From an uncultured virus (IMG/VR IMGVR_UViG_3300022660_001620) (taxonomy: Duplodnaviria > Heunggongvirae > Uroviricota > Caudoviricetes): a DNA stretch of 20,000 nt. Below, piece by piece: positions 1-19,858 of the stretch. The first letter of the stretch is position 1; every line of letters begins with the position of its first letter. The stretch lies in the IMG/VR virus record IMGVR_UViG_3300022660_001620; one strand, given 5' to 3'. The notes beneath the pieces are model-generated. The model searched no databases, was not told the DNA's origin, and saw only the letters and a program-made list of their open reading frames with translations. A program made the position numbers and the translations under genes.

Positions 1-213
1 CAGGCACCCGCCCAGGACGCAAAGACCGCCGCCGAGCTGATCGCTTCCCGCTTCGCAGGCTTTGCAGGCGTGACCGCCACCATCAAGGGCGCACAGACCG
101 CCGCGCCGGTGGTATGGCTGGCAGGCGATACCGAGAAACACGCCGACGCGATCAAGGCAGCAGGCGCAAAATGGAGCAACAAAAAATCTGCCTTTTATGT
201 CCGCGTCGCCTGA
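1..213 (+). CDS. 3' end of a hypothetical protein (partial)
   Basis: Frame 1 is open from base 1 to TGA 211-213: ...VVWLAGDTEKHADAIKAAGAKWSNKKSAFYVRVA*. Not in the ORF track because its start lies outside the window. Confidence 0.75.
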   Translation, partial: QAPAQDAKTAAELIASRFAGFAGVTATIKGAQTAAPVVWLAGDTEKHADAIKAAGAKWSNKKSAFYVRVA

Positions 214-275
214 CCCGGACACCCGGACACCCGGACACCTTCGCGGGCCGCACCGGCACAAAGCGACCCGACCCC
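213..275. repeat. Intergenic hairpin repeat, copy 1, with ACCCGGAC triplicated at 213-236
   Basis: ACCCGGACACCTTCG-CGGGCCGC-ACCGGCACAAA-GCGACCCG-ACCCC; homologous copies at 807-852 and 1955-2002. Confidence 0.9.
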
Positions 276-315
276 AGGCCACCGGCCACAAAATCACAAA
301 ATGGAGGTACACAAA

Positions 316-798
316 ATGTCCAGCTTCATCATGTCGCCCCAGTCCCACGCGACCCTTGCAAACGCCCTGGAATATATCTTGAACAGCGGCTTTAACCGCT
401 TCGGCTTTGACGCTCCCGACACCCTGCACAAAGCCCTGAATGACTGCCGTGATCGTTACGGCTTCTACTGTAACGGCCTGATCTACAACCGGCTTTACAG
501 CCTGAACGCCCGCGCCGTAGATACCCGATACAAACACGCGGACGCTTCCCAGGTGCCAGATATGCCGGAGGTGCCGCCGCTGATCGAGGAGCGCCAGCGC
601 GTCAACCACCACGAAAAGCTGCTGCCCTGGCATTACAAATTCTGCAAGATGCTTGATTGCCAGATTTACCAATCCAGTGAGGACGCGACCCGAAACGACC
701 CGCTTTTGCTTGCCCTGATCGACTTCTCCCGCGTCTACAAATCGTTTCTTGTGACCAACACCGACGAATACGACGCCGCCCCATGGGGCTGCATCTGA
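316..798 (+). CDS. Hypothetical protein (160 aa)
   Basis: GGAGG at 303-307, ATG 316 (MSSFIMS...), host-like codon usage; no family recognised. Confidence 0.8.
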   Translation: MSSFIMSPQSHATLANALEYILNSGFNRFGFDAPDTLHKALNDCRDRYGFYCNGLIYNRLYSLNARAVDTRYKHADASQVPDMPEVPPLIEERQRVNHHEKLLPWHYKFCKMLDCQIYQSSEDATRNDPLLLALIDFSRVYKSFLVTNTDEYDAAPWGCI

Positions 799-806
799 GC
801 CACAAG

Positions 807-852
807 ACCCGGAAACCTTGGCGGGCCGCACCGGCGAAAGCGACCCGACCCC
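807..852. repeat. Intergenic hairpin repeat, copy 2
   Basis: ACCCGGAAACCTTGG-CGGGCCGC-ACCGGCGAAA-GCGACCCG-ACCCC. Confidence 0.9.
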
Positions 853-889
853 AGCCAAACGGCACAAAACAAAACAGGAGGAAAAGACC

Positions 890-1924
890 ATGTACGAACA
901 ATACAGCATGATCGACCCGGCCCCGGAACAAACCACCCCGGAAGCGGAACAGACAGCCCCGGAAGCGGAGCAGGCCCAGCCCGAAACGGAACAGACCGCA
1001 CCGGCGACCCGCTATTATGAGATCAGCGAAAGCACTGCCCGCCGGGCGCACGACATGAACTCCATGCGGGACTATCCCACAAACCGTGCAACCGACGAAT
1101 ACCGCGCCGCCGTTGACGCTGCCGCCGCCCTGGTAGCATCCAAAAAGGCCAGCGTCAGCCCCTACTACCACGACAAGCTGGACGGCCTGCTTGATCGCTA
1201 CGCCCGCCGCCTTGCCGAGTGGACAAACGCATACAACCGCAACCGGGCGAGCTGCCCCAGCATCCTTGTTTCCGGCGGCTCCAATTTCCCGGTCAACAAG
1301 AAGAACAAGCAGAACGCCCGCGAGGACAGCTTGTGGCAAGAGTACAAAACCATCGAGGCCATCTTGGAAAAGATCAAGAGCGTCGGCACCGGCCCCGTTG
1401 ACCTGACCGACCCCCACGCCCGCGAAATCCTCACCGATCAGCTCAACGCCTACCAAAAGGCCCTGGATGATGCAAAGGCCGCAAACGCCTATTACCGCAA
1501 GCACAAAACGCTGGACGGCTGCCCCGGCATCGGCCCCAGGGAACGCGAATGGCTGACCCGGCCCGGCGTGTTCGCAAAGGGCGGCGGCTCCCCGCTGGAG
1601 CTGTACGGCTGCCCGTTCCCGCCTTACGAACTGCAAAGCCGCCGGGGATATATCAAGCGCGTTGCTGACCGTCTGGCCGAGCTGGACAGACTGGAAGCGG
1701 CAAAGGCCAACCCCGCCGAAAGCACAAAATTTGACGGCGGCGAGATCGTCCGCAACGCCGTGGAAAACCGGCTGCAAATCCTCTTTGACGACAAGCCCGA
1801 CGAGGACACCCGCGCCGCGCTGAAAGCAAACGGCTTCCGCTGGTCGCCCCGCAACCAGGCATGGCAGCGCCAGCTTACTGACAACGCCGAAAGCGCCGCT
1901 CGCCGGGCGCTGGGCCTGAACTGA
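890..1924 (+). CDS. Hypothetical multidomain protein (344 aa) resembling polyvalent/early-transfer protein domains of Firmicutes mobile elements
   Basis: AGGAGG then ATG 890. N-terminal 7-aa tandem repeats (PEAEQTA), central SCPSILVSGGSNFPVNKK motif, C-terminal RLQILFDDKPD...LKANGFRWSP...AWQRQLT domain. The family resemblance is from memory only. Confidence 0.8.
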   Translation: MYEQYSMIDPAPEQTTPEAEQTAPEAEQAQPETEQTAPATRYYEISESTARRAHDMNSMRDYPTNRATDEYRAAVDAAAALVASKKASVSPYYHDKLDGLLDRYARRLAEWTNAYNRNRASCPSILVSGGSNFPVNKKNKQNAREDSLWQEYKTIEAILEKIKSVGTGPVDLTDPHAREILTDQLNAYQKALDDAKAANAYYRKHKTLDGCPGIGPREREWLTRPGVFAKGGGSPLELYGCPFPPYELQSRRGYIKRVADRLAELDRLEAAKANPAESTKFDGGEIVRNAVENRLQILFDDKPDEDTRAALKANGFRWSPRNQAWQRQLTDNAESAARRALGLN

Positions 1925-1954
1925 CAACCAATTTCGTGGCCCCACGAAAATGAT

Positions 1955-2002
1955 ACCCGGACACCTTGGAGCCGTCGCACCGGCATAAAGCGACGGCACC
2001 CC
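1955..2002. repeat. Intergenic hairpin repeat, copy 3
   Basis: ACCCGGACACCTTGGA-GCCGTCGC-ACCGGCATAAA-GCGACGGC-ACCCC; perfect 8-bp stem. Confidence 0.9.
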
Positions 2003-2046
2003 ATACACAACCCGCCGCCCAGGGTAAAGGGCAGGGAGGACGCAAA

Positions 2047-2235
2047 ATGACCATCCGCGAGTATGCAAAAAGCGTCGGCTTTGAGATCGTCGGCAAGCTG
2101 ACCCGCAAAGTTGAACCCTACGGCATAGACCGAAAGCAGCGTGTCTATATCGACGAGGCCGGGAACAAATATTACCCCGACAACGGCGATGCCTGCGGTT
2201 TCTGCATCGTGACCGTTGACGGCAAGATCATCTGA
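2047..2235 (+). CDS. Small hypothetical protein (62 aa)
   Basis: GGGAGG RBS, ATG 2047 (MTIREYAK...). Confidence 0.7.
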   Translation: MTIREYAKSVGFEIVGKLTRKVEPYGIDRKQRVYIDEAGNKYYPDNGDACGFCIVTVDGKII

Positions 2236-2254
2236 CAAAACGGATGTACACAAA

Positions 2255-2413
2255 ATGGAACTGAATTGGAATATCCCCAGTGAAAGCCTGATACTGGACA
2301 AACTCGACGAGCTGCGCCAGGCTTTAGAGAACTTCCCCGAAAGCAGGCTTGCCCCTGTATGGCGACATGCTATCGAGGAGCTGGAAGCCCAGCTTCCTTG
2401 CAGCAAAGATTAA
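2255..2413 (+). CDS. Small hypothetical protein (52 aa)
   Basis: ATG 2255 (MELNWNIP...), preceded by GGATGTACACAAAATG, a near copy of the RBS region at 303-318. Confidence 0.5.
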   Translation: MELNWNIPSESLILDKLDELRQALENFPESRLAPVWRHAIEELEAQLPCSKD

Positions 2414-2436
2414 CAAACTCACAAGGAGGAATGCAC

Positions 2437-2904
2437 ATGATTGACCGATACAACCACTACGCCCGCTACAATGAGCTGATGGCCCTTGCATCTGGCTCCG
2501 CCCCTGCGCGCCGGAATGACGGTGGCTACATGGCCGCCCTTTACATTCTCTCCGCCGACACAGAACTGTATGGCATCGCCCGCTCCAAGATCGGCAGCAA
2601 CGGCGTTAGCTTTAGCAGTCTGTTAAGCGCAGCCCGCCGCGCCGAGCTGTCCGATTCTCAGGTTATCGCCGCCAAAGCGGCGCACAGCCTGTTCAATGGC
2701 GGTTCTGGCTCTACCACGCCTTGCGATCTTGTCCACTGCGATTACAGCACTCTGGACATCATCACCGACGCGCTGTATATCTGGAAAGGCGGGCGCATCC
2801 CCGCCGCCGACGGCAGCGGCCAAATGTACCTTGACCGCTCCACCGAGCACCGCCACAGGAGTTTTGAAGTTGCGCTTGCACAACACTTTGCCGCAGAGGC
2901 GTGA
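2437..2904 (+). CDS. Hypothetical protein (~155 aa)
   Basis: AAGGAGG RBS, ATG 2431 or 2437 (MIDRYNHY...). Confidence 0.75.
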   Translation: MIDRYNHYARYNELMALASGSAPARRNDGGYMAALYILSADTELYGIARSKIGSNGVSFSSLLSAARRAELSDSQVIAAKAAHSLFNGGSGSTTPCDLVHCDYSTLDIITDALYIWKGGRIPAADGSGQMYLDRSTEHRHRSFEVALAQHFAAEA

Positions 2905-2951
2905 CCCGAGATTCCACCTTTCCACAAAACGACCCGCACAGGAGGCAAGCT

Positions 2952-3188
2952 ATGTTCATTGCACCCGCAGGCACCGCCCTGTACACAAAAGAGCATGACG
3001 GCACAATCCAGCGTTGGTATCTGGATAGCTGGCACGGCGACTGGTTTTCCGTCGCCACAAAAAAGAACGCCAGGCTGTCCGACTACAAGCGCTACTATCC
3101 TGCCGCCGAGATTGGCACGGCCATCTATAAAACCCGGAAAGAGGCCGTTGCGGCACCCCGCCCGGCCACCGTTTACCAGCCGCGCTAA
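2952..3188 (+). CDS. Small hypothetical protein (78 aa)
   Basis: AGGAGG RBS, ATG 2952 (MFIAPAGT...). Confidence 0.7.
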   Translation: MFIAPAGTALYTKEHDGTIQRWYLDSWHGDWFSVATKKNARLSDYKRYYPAAEIGTAIYKTRKEAVAAPRPATVYQPR

Positions 3189-3196
3189 AAAAGCAT

Positions 3197-3225
3197 TAGA
3201 CCATCTTGATTTCGTATGATATAAT
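3197..3225 (+). promoter_or_regulatory. Sigma-A type promoter with extended -10
   Basis: TAGACC-N17-TATAAT with TGn immediately before the -10 (3217-3225). Confidence 0.65.
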
Positions 3226-3262
3226 GCGACAAAACGAGAATACGCAGAAACGAGGCGATACA

Positions 3263-3532
3263 GTGGACAATGCACACGCAATATACCCCGCGTTCCGTCT
3301 GGTGGCGCAGTTTGCCGACGGAACACGGCTTTTGTTCGACGGTTTCACCGAGGAGCAGGCCCAGCAGCGCATGGAGGCCGCCCAGGCCCAGCATGGGGAA
3401 ATCACCTGGTACGACGGCGTGACCGACGAACACTACGAAAACGGCAGATTTTACAAGCTCACCCCGCCACCGCCGGAGATCAGCATGATCGACCTGACGG
3501 AATACGGCCCACTTCACGAAAAGGAGGAATGA
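3263..3532 (+). CDS. Small acidic hypothetical protein (~89 aa)
   Basis: GAGG then GTG 3263, downstream of the promoter; ends 3 nt before the next gene. Confidence 0.7.
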   Translation: MDNAHAIYPAFRLVAQFADGTRLLFDGFTEEQAQQRMEAAQAQHGEITWYDGVTDEHYENGRFYKLTPPPPEISMIDLTEYGPLHEKEE

Positions 3533-3535
3533 CCA

Positions 3536-3757
3536 ATGCCTGTATCAGAAGCAAAGCGCCGCAACAATGATAAATACAATGCCAAATGCGACTATATCAG
3601 CATCCGCCCTGTAAAGCCCGTTGGCGCAGCCATCCGGGCCGCCGCGAAAGCAGCCGGGCAAAGTGTCCAGGGCTACATCCTGCAATCCTGCGCCGAGCGT
3701 CTGACGCGCGAGGGCCAGCCCTTGGAGCTGCCCGCAGAAGAAACCGACGCAGAGTGA
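3536..3757 (+). CDS. Small ribbon-helix-helix/Arc-like DNA-binding protein
   Basis: AAGGAGG RBS. Sequence SEAKRRNNDKYNAK-DYISIRP...IRAAAKAAGQSVQGYILQ fits the beta-helix-G-S-helix RHH pattern. Confidence 0.7.
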   Translation: MPVSEAKRRNNDKYNAKCDYISIRPVKPVGAAIRAAAKAAGQSVQGYILQSCAERLTREGQPLELPAEETDAE

Positions 3758-3768
3758 CCACAAAACAA

Positions 3769-3818
3769 AACACCGCCACGGAAAGCCAGACCGGCCCGCC
3801 GTGGCGGTGTTCTTTTTT
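3769..3818 (+). terminator. Intrinsic terminator, probably bidirectional
   Basis: 13-bp stem AACACCGCCACGG/CCGTGGCGGTGTT, T-tract after and A-rich run before; lies between convergent gene blocks. Confidence 0.8.
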
Positions 3819-4016
3819 GCTCATTCGCAAATTGTTTTTCCAGCGCCGCCACAGAGCGGCGGAAATCCTTTCGCGTTGCGCGTATGGTATTTTCCCTCAC
3901 TTGCCTTATAGGACGGCCCGTGCGCCCTGCTGGCCGCCACAAAAGCAGCTCTCCGGCAGCCTTGAAAGCGGGGGCTTTTCTCCCGCTCCAAAGTGCGGAA
4001 TTTTTTTCGGCGCTTA

Positions 4017-4499
4017 TTAGGTACGCGCGCGCGAGGCACGGGCCACAAGATCACCCGCGCCGGGCAGCTCCTCCAGCACTTCACCGAAACGCTCCATAGC
4101 CTTTTCGTGCCAATGGCGGGCCGTGCTGTCCGGGGTGTTGGTTCTGGTGGAGATTTTACCCCAACTGTACCCAAAAACATGGCGCATCAAGATCACCTGT
4201 TTGTACCTACCGTTCAGGGTGTCCAGGCAGGCCCGGATATTGGCCGCGTCTGCGGTCAGCTCCCGCTCCTTTTCCTCGATCTCCCGCAGCCGGTCACCAA
4301 TTCCGTTTTCCGCGACCCGCATCCCCATTGCTTCCGTCGGTTTTCCCGGCGACGAGCCATGCGGCATCCCATCAGCCGCCACGCCGCGCAGCCCGTTATA
4401 TTCCTGTTCCAGTTCCTCGCGCTCCTGTTTCAGCAGCCGCAGCATCCCCGGAATAGCCTTGTAATACATGGCTACGCGCTTCACGCTTTCGTACCGCAT
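4017..4499 (-). CDS. Phage transcriptional activator, RinA/ArpU/DUF1492-like (sigma-70 region-4 HTH)
   Basis: DGMPHGS motif, coiled coil, then LNGRYKQVILMRHVFGYSWGKIS...STARHWHEKA HTH. Last gene of the early operon. Confidence 0.75.
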   Translation of the reverse strand: MRYESVKRVAMYYKAIPGMLRLLKQEREELEQEYNGLRGVAADGMPHGSSPGKPTEAMGMRVAENGIGDRLREIEEKERELTADAANIRACLDTLNGRYKQVILMRHVFGYSWGKISTRTNTPDSTARHWHEKAMERFGEVLEELPGAGDLVARASRART

Positions 4500-4522
4500 C
4501 CCGTCGCCTCCTGTTCCCGCTG

Positions 4523-5155
4523 TTAAGTCAGCGTCCTGCCAAAAATCGGCTCGGTGGCCTCCGATTCGTCCACCTCCACCGGCTCACCCACCAGGGCGCT
4601 CAGTCTCCGGGCAAGCGCCGCATAGCCGTAATAATCCCCGCTCTCGGCGTACCCGCCAAACTTCCTGAAATTATCCTCCGTGGCCTTGACCGTCACAGCG
4701 ATACGCTCCTGTCCAAAGCCCAGCACTTTCTTTGTGGAAAGCACATAGATTTTTACCACCGTTTCCGCCGCGTCCCGCTGTTCGCCCAGCATCCGCCACT
4801 CCCGGTTGTTCTTCGGGGATTTGACCGCCGGAAGCACAAAACCGCCCGGCAGCAGATCGCCCAGTTCCTCGTCCAGTTTTTTCTTGGCCCGCTCCAACCC
4901 CACGGCTTTCTTGTTGGTGTCAAAGCGTCCCGCACGGGCGGCGGCATCGTCAACCACCCTCTGCAACCGGCTTTCGCCAATGCCGTAGCAGTCATTCAGG
5001 GCCACGATGAAGCACATCCCGATCACATCAGCCGCCGCCCGCCTGTTTTCGTCCACGCGCTGGCTCTCCGGCTTTTTCCCGCTGAGAAAATTCCGCTCCG
5101 TCTGCCGGACGATGTTCCGCCCGTAATAGATCGGCATCCTGTTCTTTCGGCTCAT
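4523..5155 (-). CDS. Hypothetical phage protein (210 aa)
   Basis: ATGA overlap with the upstream gene, AGGAGG RBS. Shows an apparent internal duplication (AAADVI...YGIGESRL vs AAETVV...LGFGQERI). Confidence 0.8.
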   Translation of the reverse strand: MSRKNRMPIYYGRNIVRQTERNFLSGKKPESQRVDENRRAAADVIGMCFIVALNDCYGIGESRLQRVVDDAAARAGRFDTNKKAVGLERAKKKLDEELGDLLPGGFVLPAVKSPKNNREWRMLGEQRDAAETVVKIYVLSTKKVLGFGQERIAVTVKATEDNFRKFGGYAESGDYYGYAALARRLSALVGEPVEVDESEATEPIFGRTLT

Positions 5156-14892: not shown

Positions 14893-16029
14893 ATGCCAAA
14901 AAAAGGCGAAAACATCTATAAAAGGAAAGACGGTAGATGGGAAGGACGATATATCAGGTCACGAACTGATACCGGGAAAATAGTATATGGGTATGTATAT
15001 GCAAAATCATATCGTGAAGTCAAGACTAAGTTACGAGAAATCACCCATATATATAACCAGAAAACTTTTGTAACAGTTGCGACAAATCCATACTCATTTT
15101 CGAAAATCGCATTAGATTGGTTTGAAAGTGTCAAATCACAAGTTAAAGAATCTACACGGAATAAGTATCACAATATGCTTACTGACTATATACTCCCATC
15201 GTATGGGAATCAAACTTTGGACAGCATAACTTATGATTTTATAGAATCTCACTGTAACCTCCTGTTGGTATCAGGTGGAAAAAAGGGTAATGGATTATCA
15301 ACAAAAACGGTGACAGATGTGTTGTCAGTAATTCGTAATATCTTGAAATTTGCAATTAGGAAAGGTATATATGTACCTTGCGATGGTAGTGCTGTTCAAG
15401 TAAAACGTACAGCTAATCCGATGAGGGTTTTTAGTAAAACTGAACAAGCGCAGCTTTGTAAATATATATTAGCAGAGCCTGAACCATGTAACATAGGTAT
15501 TCTCGTATGTCTATTCACTGGATTGCGAATTGGTGAAATCTGTGCTTTACGATGGGAAGATGTATCCTTCTCTGATCAGACAATACACGTTCACCATACT
15601 CTGCAAAGGGTTCAAAATCAATCTGGTTGCGGAGCGAAAACAAAGATAGTTGTAACTACTCCCAAAAGTTCCTGTTCCATAAGAACCATCCCTATTCCTG
15701 ATGAACTGATCAAGATGCTTGCTGCACACAAAAAGTCATCCGTTGGGTATTTGCTAACAAATGACGAACATAAGTTTGTGGAACCGAGAACTATGCAAAA
15801 CAAATTTAAGAAGGCACTAAAATCAAGTGGCGTAGAATCTGCCAATTTTCATGCAACCCGTCATACATTTGCTACCAGATGTATTGAATTGGGATTTGAT
15901 GTGAAAAGTCTTAGCGAAATTCTTGGTCACGCAACTGTCAATATCACAATGAACCGATATGTTCATCCTACCCTGGAGCTAAAGAAAGAAAATATGAAAA
16001 AACTTTCTTCTTTATTAACCGTCAAATAA
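14893..16029 (+). CDS. Tyrosine recombinase/integrase with N-terminal arm-binding domain
   Basis: NIYKRKDGRWEGRY N-domain; catalytic TGLRIGE (R), TPKS (K), HATRH, LGH, NRYVH (Y). AAGGAGG RBS. Confidence 0.95.
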   Translation: MPKKGENIYKRKDGRWEGRYIRSRTDTGKIVYGYVYAKSYREVKTKLREITHIYNQKTFVTVATNPYSFSKIALDWFESVKSQVKESTRNKYHNMLTDYILPSYGNQTLDSITYDFIESHCNLLLVSGGKKGNGLSTKTVTDVLSVIRNILKFAIRKGIYVPCDGSAVQVKRTANPMRVFSKTEQAQLCKYILAEPEPCNIGILVCLFTGLRIGEICALRWEDVSFSDQTIHVHHTLQRVQNQSGCGAKTKIVVTTPKSSCSIRTIPIPDELIKMLAAHKKSSVGYLLTNDEHKFVEPRTMQNKFKKALKSSGVESANFHATRHTFATRCIELGFDVKSLSEILGHATVNITMNRYVHPTLELKKENMKKLSSLLTVK

Positions 16030-16664: not shown

Positions 16665-16687
16665 ATAAAATTATATAATGACCGAGA

Positions 16688-16756
16688 GTTAGGGCAAAGT
16701 TGGCGAAAGCCTGCGACGCAAAGCTATAGGGCCTGTAAAATGGCAGCCAGTTGTTA
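16688..16756 (+). ncRNA. c-di-GMP-I (GEMM) riboswitch
   Basis: GGGCAAA-GTTGGC-GAAA-GCCTGC-GACGCAAAGCTATAGGGCCT...ATGGCAGCCAGTTG matches the clostridial consensus. TATAAT at 16674-16679; gene starts at 16839. Confidence 0.88.
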
Positions 16757-16838
16757 TGCTTTCGATGACAAACCCAAGCTGTCAGGCCATATCGTGTCTG
16801 GCAGCTTTGTGCATTTTATGGGAAAGGAGTACATTCTT

Positions 16839-18248
16839 ATGTTTGAAAAGTTCAAACAAATATTAGGTGGCAGCAGCACCGCACAGCCTTCTACCGAAGA
16901 AGTAGAGCAACAACAATATATCCAGTACGCTGTGGAACTGGAGCAATCCCTGAGCAAACTGGAATCCTCCGTACATGAGAGTGACGATCCAGACCTGATT
17001 ATGCAGAGTGTAATGAAAACCGCTTTGGAGTTCTATCAAGGTGACTGGATTGGCTTTCTTGAAGTGGATCTGGAGTTGGGATTGTGGACACCGACCCACT
17101 GGTACAATCCAAGACCCGATGATAAGACGTTACAACTCTTGCAGGAATTTGAATCTGCTGAGTTTTTGCATAGATGGGTAAAGGCAATGCACGACAATGA
17201 CCCTATCATTGTTCGTGATGTGAATGAAGTAAAAAACGAGTACCCAGGTGAGTATGCAGTCTATCAAAGATTGTACTGCCAGAGTGTTTTGGCTGTTCCT
17301 GTGAAACCTCGTCCGATGGGTTTCCTTGTACTGAGAAATCCGCAGAAACATCTGGAACGAAGCAGTATGCTTCAGCTGCTCGCATTTGTGGTTCTCGCCT
17401 GTGTAAATGAGCAGAAGCTGATGCAGAGCATGAAGATGTCGGTTTCTCCTGAGAACATCGAACATGATACGGATGTCATCATCAATCTCTTTGGTAATCT
17501 GGAAATCTATACTTCCGGTGGTGTTCTTCGTGAATCTGATTTGAAATCGCCTATGTGTACCAGACTTCTGGCATATATGCTTCTCAACCGCAAGGTGACA
17601 ATTCCTGCATGGGAAATTGCGGAAGCGATATGGCCTGAAGAAGCCGTTGATGCAGATAACCCAAGTAAGAACCTTCGAGCATTGGTGTTCCGTTTAAGAC
17701 AGGCATTTGCCCTGATCTCGGAGTATCAGCTGATAGAAACAACGCCTAATGGCTACCGTTTCAATCCGAAGCTCCATATAATGACTGACCTCCAGTTGTT
17801 TGATAAGTATTGGGATGCAGCACAAACAACAGGCTCTACTACCGGCAAGGTGGAGATTCTGAAACGTGCTATGAACCTCTACAAAGGCAGAGTTCTTTTG
17901 TCTGCCGACTCTGAACATTGGATTATGCTGACTGCGGCAAATTATGAACTGCGCTACACCGGCGTTGTAAATGAGTTGCTGAAAACGCTGGAGGATGCGA
18001 AGGATTATCAAAACCTGCATAAGTACGCAGCACAATCTTTGGGTGCAGCTCCGGGCAATGTGAAAGCCTATTACTGGCTGATCGTCGCTATCTACAACAT
18101 GGGTGCGGACGAAATGGTTTCCACCCAGCTGGAAATGGCAAAGGAATATCTGACCGATGAGGAATACTACGATTTGGTCAATGCACTAAAAGATGCGAAG
18201 ATAACACCGCCTACAAACCGTTTCCGCAACGAAAAACTGACCATATAA
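16839..18248 (+). CDS. Transcriptional regulator: GAF-like sensor, OmpR-type winged helix and BTAD (SARP-like), 469 aa
   Basis: N-half ALEFYQGDW...SVLAVP...MGFLVLRNP (GAF-like); INLFGNLEI...LLAYMLLN...IAEAIWP...LVFRLRQ...GYRFN (wHTH); DLQLF...AMNLYKG...W (BTAD). AAGGAG RBS. Confidence 0.85.
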   Translation: MFEKFKQILGGSSTAQPSTEEVEQQQYIQYAVELEQSLSKLESSVHESDDPDLIMQSVMKTALEFYQGDWIGFLEVDLELGLWTPTHWYNPRPDDKTLQLLQEFESAEFLHRWVKAMHDNDPIIVRDVNEVKNEYPGEYAVYQRLYCQSVLAVPVKPRPMGFLVLRNPQKHLERSSMLQLLAFVVLACVNEQKLMQSMKMSVSPENIEHDTDVIINLFGNLEIYTSGGVLRESDLKSPMCTRLLAYMLLNRKVTIPAWEIAEAIWPEEAVDADNPSKNLRALVFRLRQAFALISEYQLIETTPNGYRFNPKLHIMTDLQLFDKYWDAAQTTGSTTGKVEILKRAMNLYKGRVLLSADSEHWIMLTAANYELRYTGVVNELLKTLEDAKDYQNLHKYAAQSLGAAPGNVKAYYWLIVAIYNMGADEMVSTQLEMAKEYLTDEEYYDLVNALKDAKITPPTNRFRNEKLTI

Positions 18249-18989: not shown

Positions 18990-19360
18990 CACAGCCAAAG
19001 AAAACGGCTGTGTGTTCCTTGAAAATTGAATACACATTCATCAGATACGTTCCTGTTGTCGGTGTGAAAGCATCAGCCACATCAGCGGTACGCCATGAGG
19101 TATTAGTTGTAGAAACAGAGCAAAGGTAAATTACGAACTGCTTCTGAACTGGTATGAGCGAGAAATGCCGGCTTGTAAATATTGGATTGCTCCCAATACG
19201 GCGATGAAAACAACAGGGTTAAAGATACTTCTCTACGGAGCTGGCGGAGAACCCGGCAGAGGTTAGATTCCTATGGAGCTGATTAGCAGTCAGCCGTTTG
19301 ATGATTTCCCGATAAGATACTTCTTATCACCCAGGGGTGCCGAGGGCAAATATGGGGTTC
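18990..19360 (+). ncRNA. Candidate structured leader or ncRNA upstream of mazF
   Basis: No convincing ORF; several hairpins (18990-19012, 19061-19074 with GAAA loop, 19180-19198, 19260-19272, 19278-19294, 19311-19328). Confidence 0.4.
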
Positions 19361-19447
19361 AACATATTTTTTCGGAAGGGCTGTTTCTGTCTGTTTTCGG
19401 ATGGGACAGCCCTTCGTACATACCCAATGAAAGGAGGTTCACCATTT

Positions 19448-19858
19448 ATGATGAGAAAAAATTGGGTATATCGCCGTGGCGATATTTATTGTGCTGATCT
19501 GAACCCTGTAATTGGCTCTGAACAAGGTGGCACCCGTCCGGTGGTAGTGATCCAGAATGATACCGGAAATAAACACGCTCCAACTCTGATTGTGGCAACG
19601 GTCACAACGAAAATCAGGAAAAAAGAAAAGATGCCGACACATTATCTGATAAAAAACAATCCTGCTTTTTCTGAACCATCAGTTGTTATGTTGGAGCAGA
19701 TTCGCACGATTGATAAAAGTCGTATCGAGAGTTACTTAGGGAAAGCATCCCGAAGTGAAATGACAGGAATTGATAAGGCTCTGCTTACCAGTATGGCATT
19801 GCAGTACCTTTGTGGAAATCTGTCGGATAATAACGACGCATTACCTACAAATCCTTAA
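19448..19858 (+). CDS. mazF: PemK/MazF-family endoribonuclease toxin (no adjacent MazE seen)
   Basis: RRGDIY.ADL.P..GSEQGGTRPVVVIQND.GN...TLIVA.VTT...LEQIRTIDK.R; AAGGAGG then ATG 19448. Confidence 0.92.
   Translation: MMRKNWVYRRGDIYCADLNPVIGSEQGGTRPVVVIQNDTGNKHAPTLIVATVTTKIRKKEKMPTHYLIKNNPAFSEPSVVMLEQIRTIDKSRIESYLGKASRSEMTGIDKALLTSMALQYLCGNLSDNNDALPTNP

Follow-up and report, generated by a model that had tools for sequence, protein, structure and literature searches.

RAGATH-5 RNA motifs follow stop codons in a prophage operon, in slots that related phages also fill with self-cleaving ribozymes

The 20,000-nucleotide (nt) DNA stretch analyzed here, hereafter called the window, belongs to the record IMGVR_UViG_3300022660_001620 of an uncultured virus (Caudoviricetes) in IMG/VR. 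Its plus strand carries three conserved repeats at positions 229..276, 807..853, and 1955..2003. These repeats are copies of RAGATH-5 (Rfam RF02685), an RNA motif that is already catalogued, belongs to a family without an assigned function, and is thus not new. In related phages, the same slots behind the same genes are occupied either by RAGATH-5 or by twister-sister and hammerhead ribozymes, and we consider this swap the strongest clue to the function of RAGATH-5. With a probability of about 0.5, we propose that RAGATH-5 is a sense-strand RNA module that cuts the operon messenger RNA (mRNA) between genes or marks it for cutting.

An Rfam scan of the window matched RF02685 to copy 2 with 56.7 bits and to copy 1 with 53.1 bits, the gathering cut-off of the family being 50 bits. 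Copy 3 was recovered at a permissive threshold with 41.7 bits (E = 1.5e-4) over the full model, positions 1-53; the swap of its outer stem puts its score under the cut-off. Each of the three copies covers all 53 positions of the RF02685 model. At E-values of up to 10, the three sites matched RAGATH-5 alone and no other Rfam family or ribozyme class, and the models of the known twister-sister, hammerhead, pistol, hatchet, and hepatitis delta virus (HDV)-like ribozymes matched none of them. Apart from the RAGATH-5 matches, the scan of the window returned no ribozyme. The first-pass annotation, made from the sequence alone, had not recognized the element as a known family and had named a match to a described Rfam family as grounds against its own proposal; the Rfam search has now returned precisely such a match. 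The window copies differ in nothing by kind from RAGATH-5, and, in keeping with the family definition, they are located in prophage operons alongside twister-sister and hammerhead ribozymes. The RAGATH motifs were reportedly discovered in a 2015 study by Weinberg and coworkers in Nat Chem Biol. A full-text literature search found no paper naming RAGATH-5, and a 2017 ribozyme review makes no mention of RAGATH.

Homologues were collected with a covariance model of our own, which was built from 53 copies: 49 distinct pattern hits in viral contigs, the three window copies, and one copy from the nearest record, G001 (locus L005), a 27.6-kb viral contig that has 92% of the sampled words in common with the window. 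From this first alignment (A1), three pattern hits (L020, L048, and L097) had been dropped by eye as coding look-alikes without the stem. The model scored the three window copies with 66.0-67.5 bits (E of about 1e-13). A first search yielded 124 hits, 72 of them distinct. A second search, which included 9-kb flanks, yielded 167 hits from 47 sources, and the best 150 of the 167, of which 118 are distinct, constitute alignment A3. The 167 copies were located in 44 of the 47 sources (41 distinct ones; L005 overlaps with the window).

The clearest functional hint came from an Rfam scan of 16 related loci, which revealed 84 RAGATH-5 matches above the cut-off together with seven twister-sister ribozymes (RF02681) and one type II hammerhead ribozyme (RF02276). 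All eight ribozymes are located within the arrays and share their strand with RAGATH-5, and seven of them start within -4 to +4 nt of an upstream stop codon. The elements are interchangeable after orthologous genes. Behind an orthologous gene of 541 amino acids (aa) and the same 7-nt spacer, twister-sister comes next in L256 and RAGATH-5 in L305 and L263. Likewise, the gene with the C-terminus ...Y(Y/F)(V/F)RVA, which ends at position 213 of the window, is followed by RAGATH-5 in the window, by twister-sister in L278 and L299, and by a hammerhead in L253. To our knowledge, the sole chemistry of twister-sister and hammerhead ribozymes is the cutting of their own RNA. Thus, their occurrence in the same slots on the gene strand indicates a sense-strand RNA role for RAGATH-5. 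Neither ribozyme, however, resembles RAGATH-5 in sequence or fold, and self-cleavage is established for the ribozymes only.

The placement of RAGATH-5 is tied to the stop codons of the genes upstream. Copies in one source were always on the same strand (all 44 sources with hits) and formed arrays of up to eight copies with a spacing of 0.26-1.7 kb. The following context counts exclude the window, whose DNA is also contained in L005; four copies with the flank GGATAT escaped the regular expression used in the evaluation of 160 copies. All 160 evaluated copies are preceded by a same-strand open reading frame (ORF) of at least 40 codons that ends no more than 90 nt upstream, and for 152 of them a Shine-Dalgarno sequence with a start codon comes 30-154 nt after the copy. 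The knot described below begins 5-10 nt past the stop codon in 107 of 144 distinct contexts; this was the case for 341 of 8600 positions drawn at random from these arrays (4%) and for 1 of 164 when the elements were read on the opposite strand. The distance from a copy to the next start codon is much looser than this spacer between stop codon and knot. The stop codon before the knot is TGA in 100 of the 144 contexts, and a C stands right after the stop in 86. A small GC-rich hairpin trails 102 of 125 distinct copies; its tetraloop is of the GNRA type in 16 of 40 cases and of the reverse-complement type in none of the 40. We also noted the hexamer ACGAAA, which occurs 6.3 times per kb within -20 to +90 nt of the copies versus 1.75 times per kb in the rest of the arrays. 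The reverse complement was not found near the copies. ACGAAA represents a strand-specific leader motif, with an example in the window at 1943-1949.

In strand order, RAGATH-5 consists of a flanking CCGG, an 8-nt linker (A-Y-A-C-C-Y-U-N), a stem of 9-10 positions, an A, a loop CCGG, N(0-7)-AAA, the returning stem strand, and N-CCA. Our alignments were fitted to our own model and lean towards structure, and the counts drawn from them exceed the number of independent events because the phages are related; within these bounds, two-sided changes occurred at eight of the nine stem pairs, and 86.3% of the cells were paired in the 72 distinct homologues. When the partner strand was slid by 1-3 columns, at most 41% of the cells were paired. 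We base the claim of covariation on the 72 homologues because three copies alone cannot prove it. The first-pass annotation's proposal that the element is selected as a single-stranded structure is therefore borne out, now by a covariance model. The terminal pair of the stem (columns 16-53) covaries as well, with G-C in 85, A-U in 27, and C-G in four cases; next come a single nucleotide and a CCA that is almost invariant. Approximately 20 of the 56 nucleotides are invariant although they are unpaired or located in a loop, which is more in keeping with a tertiary fold than with a simple hairpin for protection. Thermodynamic folding against shuffled sequences gave no significant signal for the plus strand (z-scores of 0.34, 0.76, and -2.27 for copies 1-3), a comparison that is uninformative in this GC-rich DNA.

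The structure line of the RF02685 model displays no pseudoknot. The first-pass annotation had guessed that the loop CCGG pairs with the flanking CCGG, and covariation at the outer two pairs backs this guess. In A3, 91.5% of the cells of this helix were paired, and two-sided changes were present at two of its four pairs. The outer pair was C-G in 39, G-C in 22, A-U in four, G.U in two, and U-A and U.G in one case each, and was unpaired in 35. For the second pair we counted 109 C-G, two U-A, one G-C, and one U.G, with four unpaired, while the inner two pairs are invariant. A G in the flank coincided with a C in the loop in 22 of 25 cases. Judged by this covariation, RAGATH-5 RNA folds as an H-type pseudoknot.

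Direct reading of the window confirmed the three repeats on the plus strand, each between a stop codon and the following ribosome-binding site, just as first described. At full Rfam extent, the repeat unit comprises about 55 nt and ends at 283, 860, and 2010, respectively. Copy 1 (229..276; Rfam match 231-283; 66.0 bits with our own model) forms the pseudoknot from strands 231-234 and 253-256 and the stem from 244-251 and 263-270, with the mismatch C248.A266. Its tail ACCCCA occupies 271-276, the preceding stop codon is TGA at 211-213, and the next gene starts with ATG at 316. In copy 2 (807..853; Rfam match 809-860; 67.5 bits), the pseudoknot strands are 809-812 and 831-834 and the stem strands 822-829 and 840-847, with the mismatch C826.A843; the tail is at 848-853. 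Here, the knot begins 10 nt past the stop TGA at 796-798, and the next ATG is at 890. Copy 3 (1955..2003; Rfam match 1957-2010; 66.3 bits) pairs 1957-1960 with 1980-1983 in the pseudoknot and 1971-1978 with 1990-1997 in the stem, without a mismatch, and has its tail at 1998-2003. Its knot begins 32 nt past the stop TGA at 1922-1924, and the next ATG is at 2047. Copies 1 and 2 have the stem CGGGCCGC/GCGACCCG with a single C.A, and copy 3 has the fully paired stem GCCGTCGC/GCGACGGC; the compensatory change of the outer stem and the restriction of the C.A to copies 1 and 2 had both been noted correctly in the first-pass annotation. Small hairpins trail copy 1 (GGCC-ACC-GGCC, 277..287, plus strand) and copy 2 (GCC-AAAC-GGC, 854..863, plus strand).

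The 13-mer of the 5' flank, ACCCGGAMACCTT, occurs exactly three times in the window. With up to two mismatches, five matches were found versus 0.88 expected from shuffles. The two additional ones, at 213 and 221, have two mismatches and are part of a tandem 8-nt unit, ACCCGGAC, which is present three times at 213..236 on the plus strand and triplicates the 5' flank of copy 1. As a side observation, the triplicated ACCCGGAC provides the loop of copy 1 with three alternative CCGG partners; the triplication is present only in the window phage and G001. A perfect 8-bp inverted repeat, TTTCGTGG-CC-CCACGAAA (1932-1949), which has a terminator-like score on the minus strand, fills the 32 nt that separate copy 3 from its stop codon, a spacer of unusual length. 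We rejected an intrinsic terminator as the identity of the repeats themselves: the stem is followed by ACCCCA and no U run, and none of the 11 terminator-like sites in positions 1-4800 falls on a copy.

The genes around the repeats are all on the plus strand. Positions 1..213 hold the 3' end of the gene upstream of copy 1 (cluster 8, C-terminus ...FYVRVA, stop TGA 211-213). Its intact version in G001 is preceded by a fourth RAGATH-5 copy, which scores 60.7 bits and lies 1 kb upstream of the window. Between copies 1 and 2 resides a gene for a 160-aa protein (316..798; phrog_35696, cluster 6) with no assigned function, and between copies 2 and 3 one for a 344-aa protein (890..1924; phrog_19458, cluster 2) with the PHROGs label 'primase' and without a Pfam match. 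A gene for a 62-aa protein without a family match (2047..2235) follows copy 3 and leads several tightly packed genes without further repeats.

According to our preferred reading, RAGATH-5 would be read on the gene strand within the polycistronic mRNA of an accessory, anti-defence-like operon. The knot would form 5-10 nt past the stop codon of the preceding gene; after it would come the small hairpin, then a leader rich in A, and finally the ribosome-binding site that serves the next gene. RAGATH-5 would have the task of the twister-sister and hammerhead ribozymes found in its place in related phages, and the operon mRNA would be severed between genes, with either the RNA itself or a ribonuclease of the host or phage making the cut. 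The data above show the family membership, the fold, the placement, and the interchange with ribozymes; the cut itself is what we infer from the ribozyme swap. More tentatively, RAGATH-5 might be an RNA-cutting module in the strict sense, that is, a new class of self-cleaving ribozyme or a mimic of the transfer RNA (tRNA) acceptor arm that is cut by a tRNA-processing enzyme. A candidate self-cleaving form may depend on the pseudoknot, on more flanking sequence, or on specific conditions. Such a condition could lie in the A.C/C.A pairs conserved at two positions (described below), which would be protonation-sensitive.

Both the tRNA acceptor end and the minihelix substrates of RNase P are helices that end in N-CCA. 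RAGATH-5 resembles them in its stacked stem and pseudoknot, with a covarying terminal pair, one variable nucleotide, and the near-invariant CCA. By analogy, the candidate tRNA-mimic form, a pseudoknotted acceptor arm composed of the stem and N-CCA, may hand the cut to RNase P or to another tRNA-processing enzyme. Unlike these substrates, RAGATH-5 has no T-loop, its helix comprises 9-10 positions instead of 12, and its CCA is internal to the transcript. ARAGORN detected no tRNA, transfer-messenger RNA (tmRNA), or tRNA-like gene in the window.

Several points weigh against a module that cuts or marks the mRNA. Sharing slots with ribozymes is an equivalence of place, not of chemistry, and many of the loci belong to related phages, so that the counts are not independent. 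In passages of a 2024 paper, the functions of RAGATH members beyond the hammerhead and HDV variants and twister-sister are given as unknown (PMC11061315), and passages of the same paper report no self-cleavage for RAGATH-5. The latter is in line with a knot that stays uncut on the sense strand and is bound by a protein of the phage or host, acts as a barrier to exonucleases, or serves as an insulator uncoupling the translation of the neighbouring genes. Such a knot would have the fold, strand, and placement of the cutting module, and a composite leader is suggested by the hairpin that trails the copies and by the strand-specific motif ACGAAA. It would leave unexplained, however, why self-cleaving ribozymes substitute for RAGATH-5 in the same slots, and the arrays contain no recurrent family of RNA-binding proteins, the annotations of the gene clusters being mostly without an assigned function. 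We regard an uncut knot as doubtful.

The remaining objections to the cutting module concern the strand. The structural cells of A3 contain 186 A.C/C.A and 24 G.U combinations (raw counts); the former can pair only on the minus strand and the latter only on the plus strand. One mis-registered column accounts for about 38 of the 186, which leaves about 148 and a ratio of A.C to G.U of about 6 to 1. A ratio of about 2 to 1 is expected from the base composition (A 25%, C 33%, G 27%, T 15%). Helices of the twister-sister ribozymes in the same phages showed one flagged non-standard pair in seven copies altogether, and this near-absence means that the A.C excess is not a general mutational habit. 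Furthermore, copies 1 and 2 fold with -21.3 and -21.8 kcal/mol on the minus strand versus -12.3 and -13.0 kcal/mol on the plus strand, an advantage of 8-9 kcal/mol. A functional fold on the strand opposite the genes, either as antisense RNA or as single-stranded DNA (ssDNA) acting as a priming, ssDNA-promoter, or protein-loading hairpin, would explain the A.C excess and the minus-strand stability, features that a sense-strand module leaves unexplained. A Rep gene of the rolling-circle type (PF23343) on the minus strand of the window fits this idea.

Other observations speak against the opposite strand. The placement is anchored to sense-strand stop codons, as the control with 1 of 164 demonstrates; the hairpins with GNRA loops trail the copies on the sense strand, and the ribozymes that swap in are sense-strand elements. 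The mismatches are found mainly at two fixed positions. At columns 23/47, to which C248.A266 and C826.A843 of the window belong, 118 distinct copies include 72 C.A, 27 C-G, and 17 U.G, and the 17 U.G are themselves mismatches on the minus strand. At the second position, columns 18/51, 47 of the 118 distinct copies have A.C. The Rfam consensus at the mismatch positions is C/g. Alternatively, the excess may reflect wobble-shaped A+.C pairs with a functional role. The lambda-type terminase implies that the phage packages double-stranded DNA. The stem is too short for a promoter, and the ssDNA promoter considered in the first-pass annotation was abandoned: a 10-position stem has no room for a -35/-10 pair, and no promoter-like match was found at the copies. 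An Frpo-type ssDNA promoter was likewise rejected, as the stem of 9-10 positions is not a long hairpin rebuilding the -35 and -10 elements. Thus, of the initial minus-strand idea, the remark on the mismatches holds far beyond the window, whereas the ribozyme slots on the gene strand favour sense RNA. We consider an opposite-strand function improbable.

The initial proposals also included an attC-like recombination site, which would mark the borders of mobile gene cassettes. RAGATH-5 shares with integron attC sites the position close behind each gene, with one gene then one site and a variable distance to the next gene, the arrays in the same direction, the variable genes, and the better fold on the non-gene strand. 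Gene content and order between the repeats indeed vary among related phages, as the first-pass annotation had anticipated: the cluster order 3-5-1 in some contrasts with 5-3-1 in others, and the slot after cluster 1 is filled by cluster 11, 7, 21, 6, 28, or 29 or is empty. This turnover is explained equally well by ordinary homologous exchange between 56-nt direct repeats, and the repeat type tracks the genome about as much as it tracks either neighbouring gene (identity 0.74 versus 0.725, no clear linkage). Unlike attC, RAGATH-5 has no GTTRRRY/RYYYAAC core sites, with neither a GTT nor an AAC core at either end of any copy, and its loop and flanks are strongly conserved in sequence; moreover, ribozymes occupy the same slots. 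No integron integrase was found, since the only tyrosine recombinase of the window (14893-16026) reached 57.7 bits against the TIGR02249 cut-off of 265 and 35 bits against the NF011946 cut-off of 435. A cassette site is thus very improbable. Hardly credible at all is a recoding signal, in which the knot would cause readthrough or frameshifting at the upstream stop codon. Known recoding pseudoknots have a similar geometry, with the structure 5-9 nt past the recoded codon, and the predominant 5-10 nt spacer, the frequent TGA, and the following C of RAGATH-5 suit it. The in-frame extension past the stop, however, has a median of 34 codons compared with 37.5 and 32 in the other frames, tandem stops are present at some copies, and the ribozymes of the arrays lie equally close to stop codons.

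The window is a cos-type temperate prophage of gut Oscillospirales. Genes for a lambda-type large terminase and for small terminases are present in the related record G001, where they lie on the opposite strand. The tyrosine integrase is encoded at 14893-16026, and the minus strand carries, besides the Rep gene, genes for two DNA methylases, DUF1064, and a dUTPase. The repeats reside in a plus-strand operon that extends from position 1 to approximately 4668 and consists of small genes, mostly without an assigned function. In relatives, the genes between the repeats encode an ArdC-N-like protein (phrog_34979), a methyltransferase-like DUF4942 protein, a SWIM-finger protein, and phrog_19458. The repeat-bearing operon thus looks like an accessory module of the anti-defence type. 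Bacterial genomes with the confirmed motif are metagenome-assembled genomes (MAGs) labelled Faecalibacterium, Oscillibacter, and Clostridiales. In a loose genome-wide pattern scan, 7 of 122 loci passed a crude hairpin filter, namely L154, L243, and L244 (Faecalibacterium MAG), L167 and L168 (Oscillibacter MAG), L178 (Clostridiales MAG), and L150; the last, from a Proteobacteria MAG, is probably a chance match. An order-level genome search recovered the motif in 1 of 151 genomes, the centre genome only, a result of little weight given that 35 candidates were scored per genome.

Other RNA elements were detected in the surroundings. In G001, beyond the window, a DUF3800-VIII RNA motif (L005 4126-4192, minus strand, 68.3 bits) lies just upstream of a small-terminase gene. 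A sub-threshold match to the Pseudomonas rnk leader (3759-3880, minus strand, 34.6 bits versus a cut-off of 55) corresponds to a GC-rich hairpin with a U run inside the presumed plus-strand operon, whose boundary is approximate (3.5-4.7 kb). A c-di-GMP-I riboswitch aptamer (16683-16758, plus strand, 51 bits versus a cut-off of 35) precedes ORF 16740-18248, which encodes a 502-aa regulator with Trans_reg_C and BTAD domains. The true start of this regulator is probably further downstream because the listed ATG at 16740 sits inside the aptamer. Past the integrase and outside the prophage, a pemK RNA motif (RF02913; 19219-19276, plus strand, 61.7 bits) is located directly upstream of a PemK/MazF-type toxin gene (19337-19858; PF02452, E = 9e-34).

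The find itself is ordinary, since it adds copies to a motif listed in Rfam ever since RAGATH was described. The assembled context, however, makes the function of RAGATH-5 testable without settling it. The covarying pseudoknot, the fixed place 5-10 nt past the stop codon, the arrays of up to eight copies, and the one-for-one replacement by ribozymes after the same genes all provide handles for experiments. If RAGATH-5 proves to be a cutting site, this would help answer the older question of what role self-cleaving ribozymes play in phage operons, and it would mean that one task is served by different RNA devices that replace each other. In that case, phages would 'punctuate' their operon mRNA with interchangeable modules, some self-cutting and others cut by enzymes.

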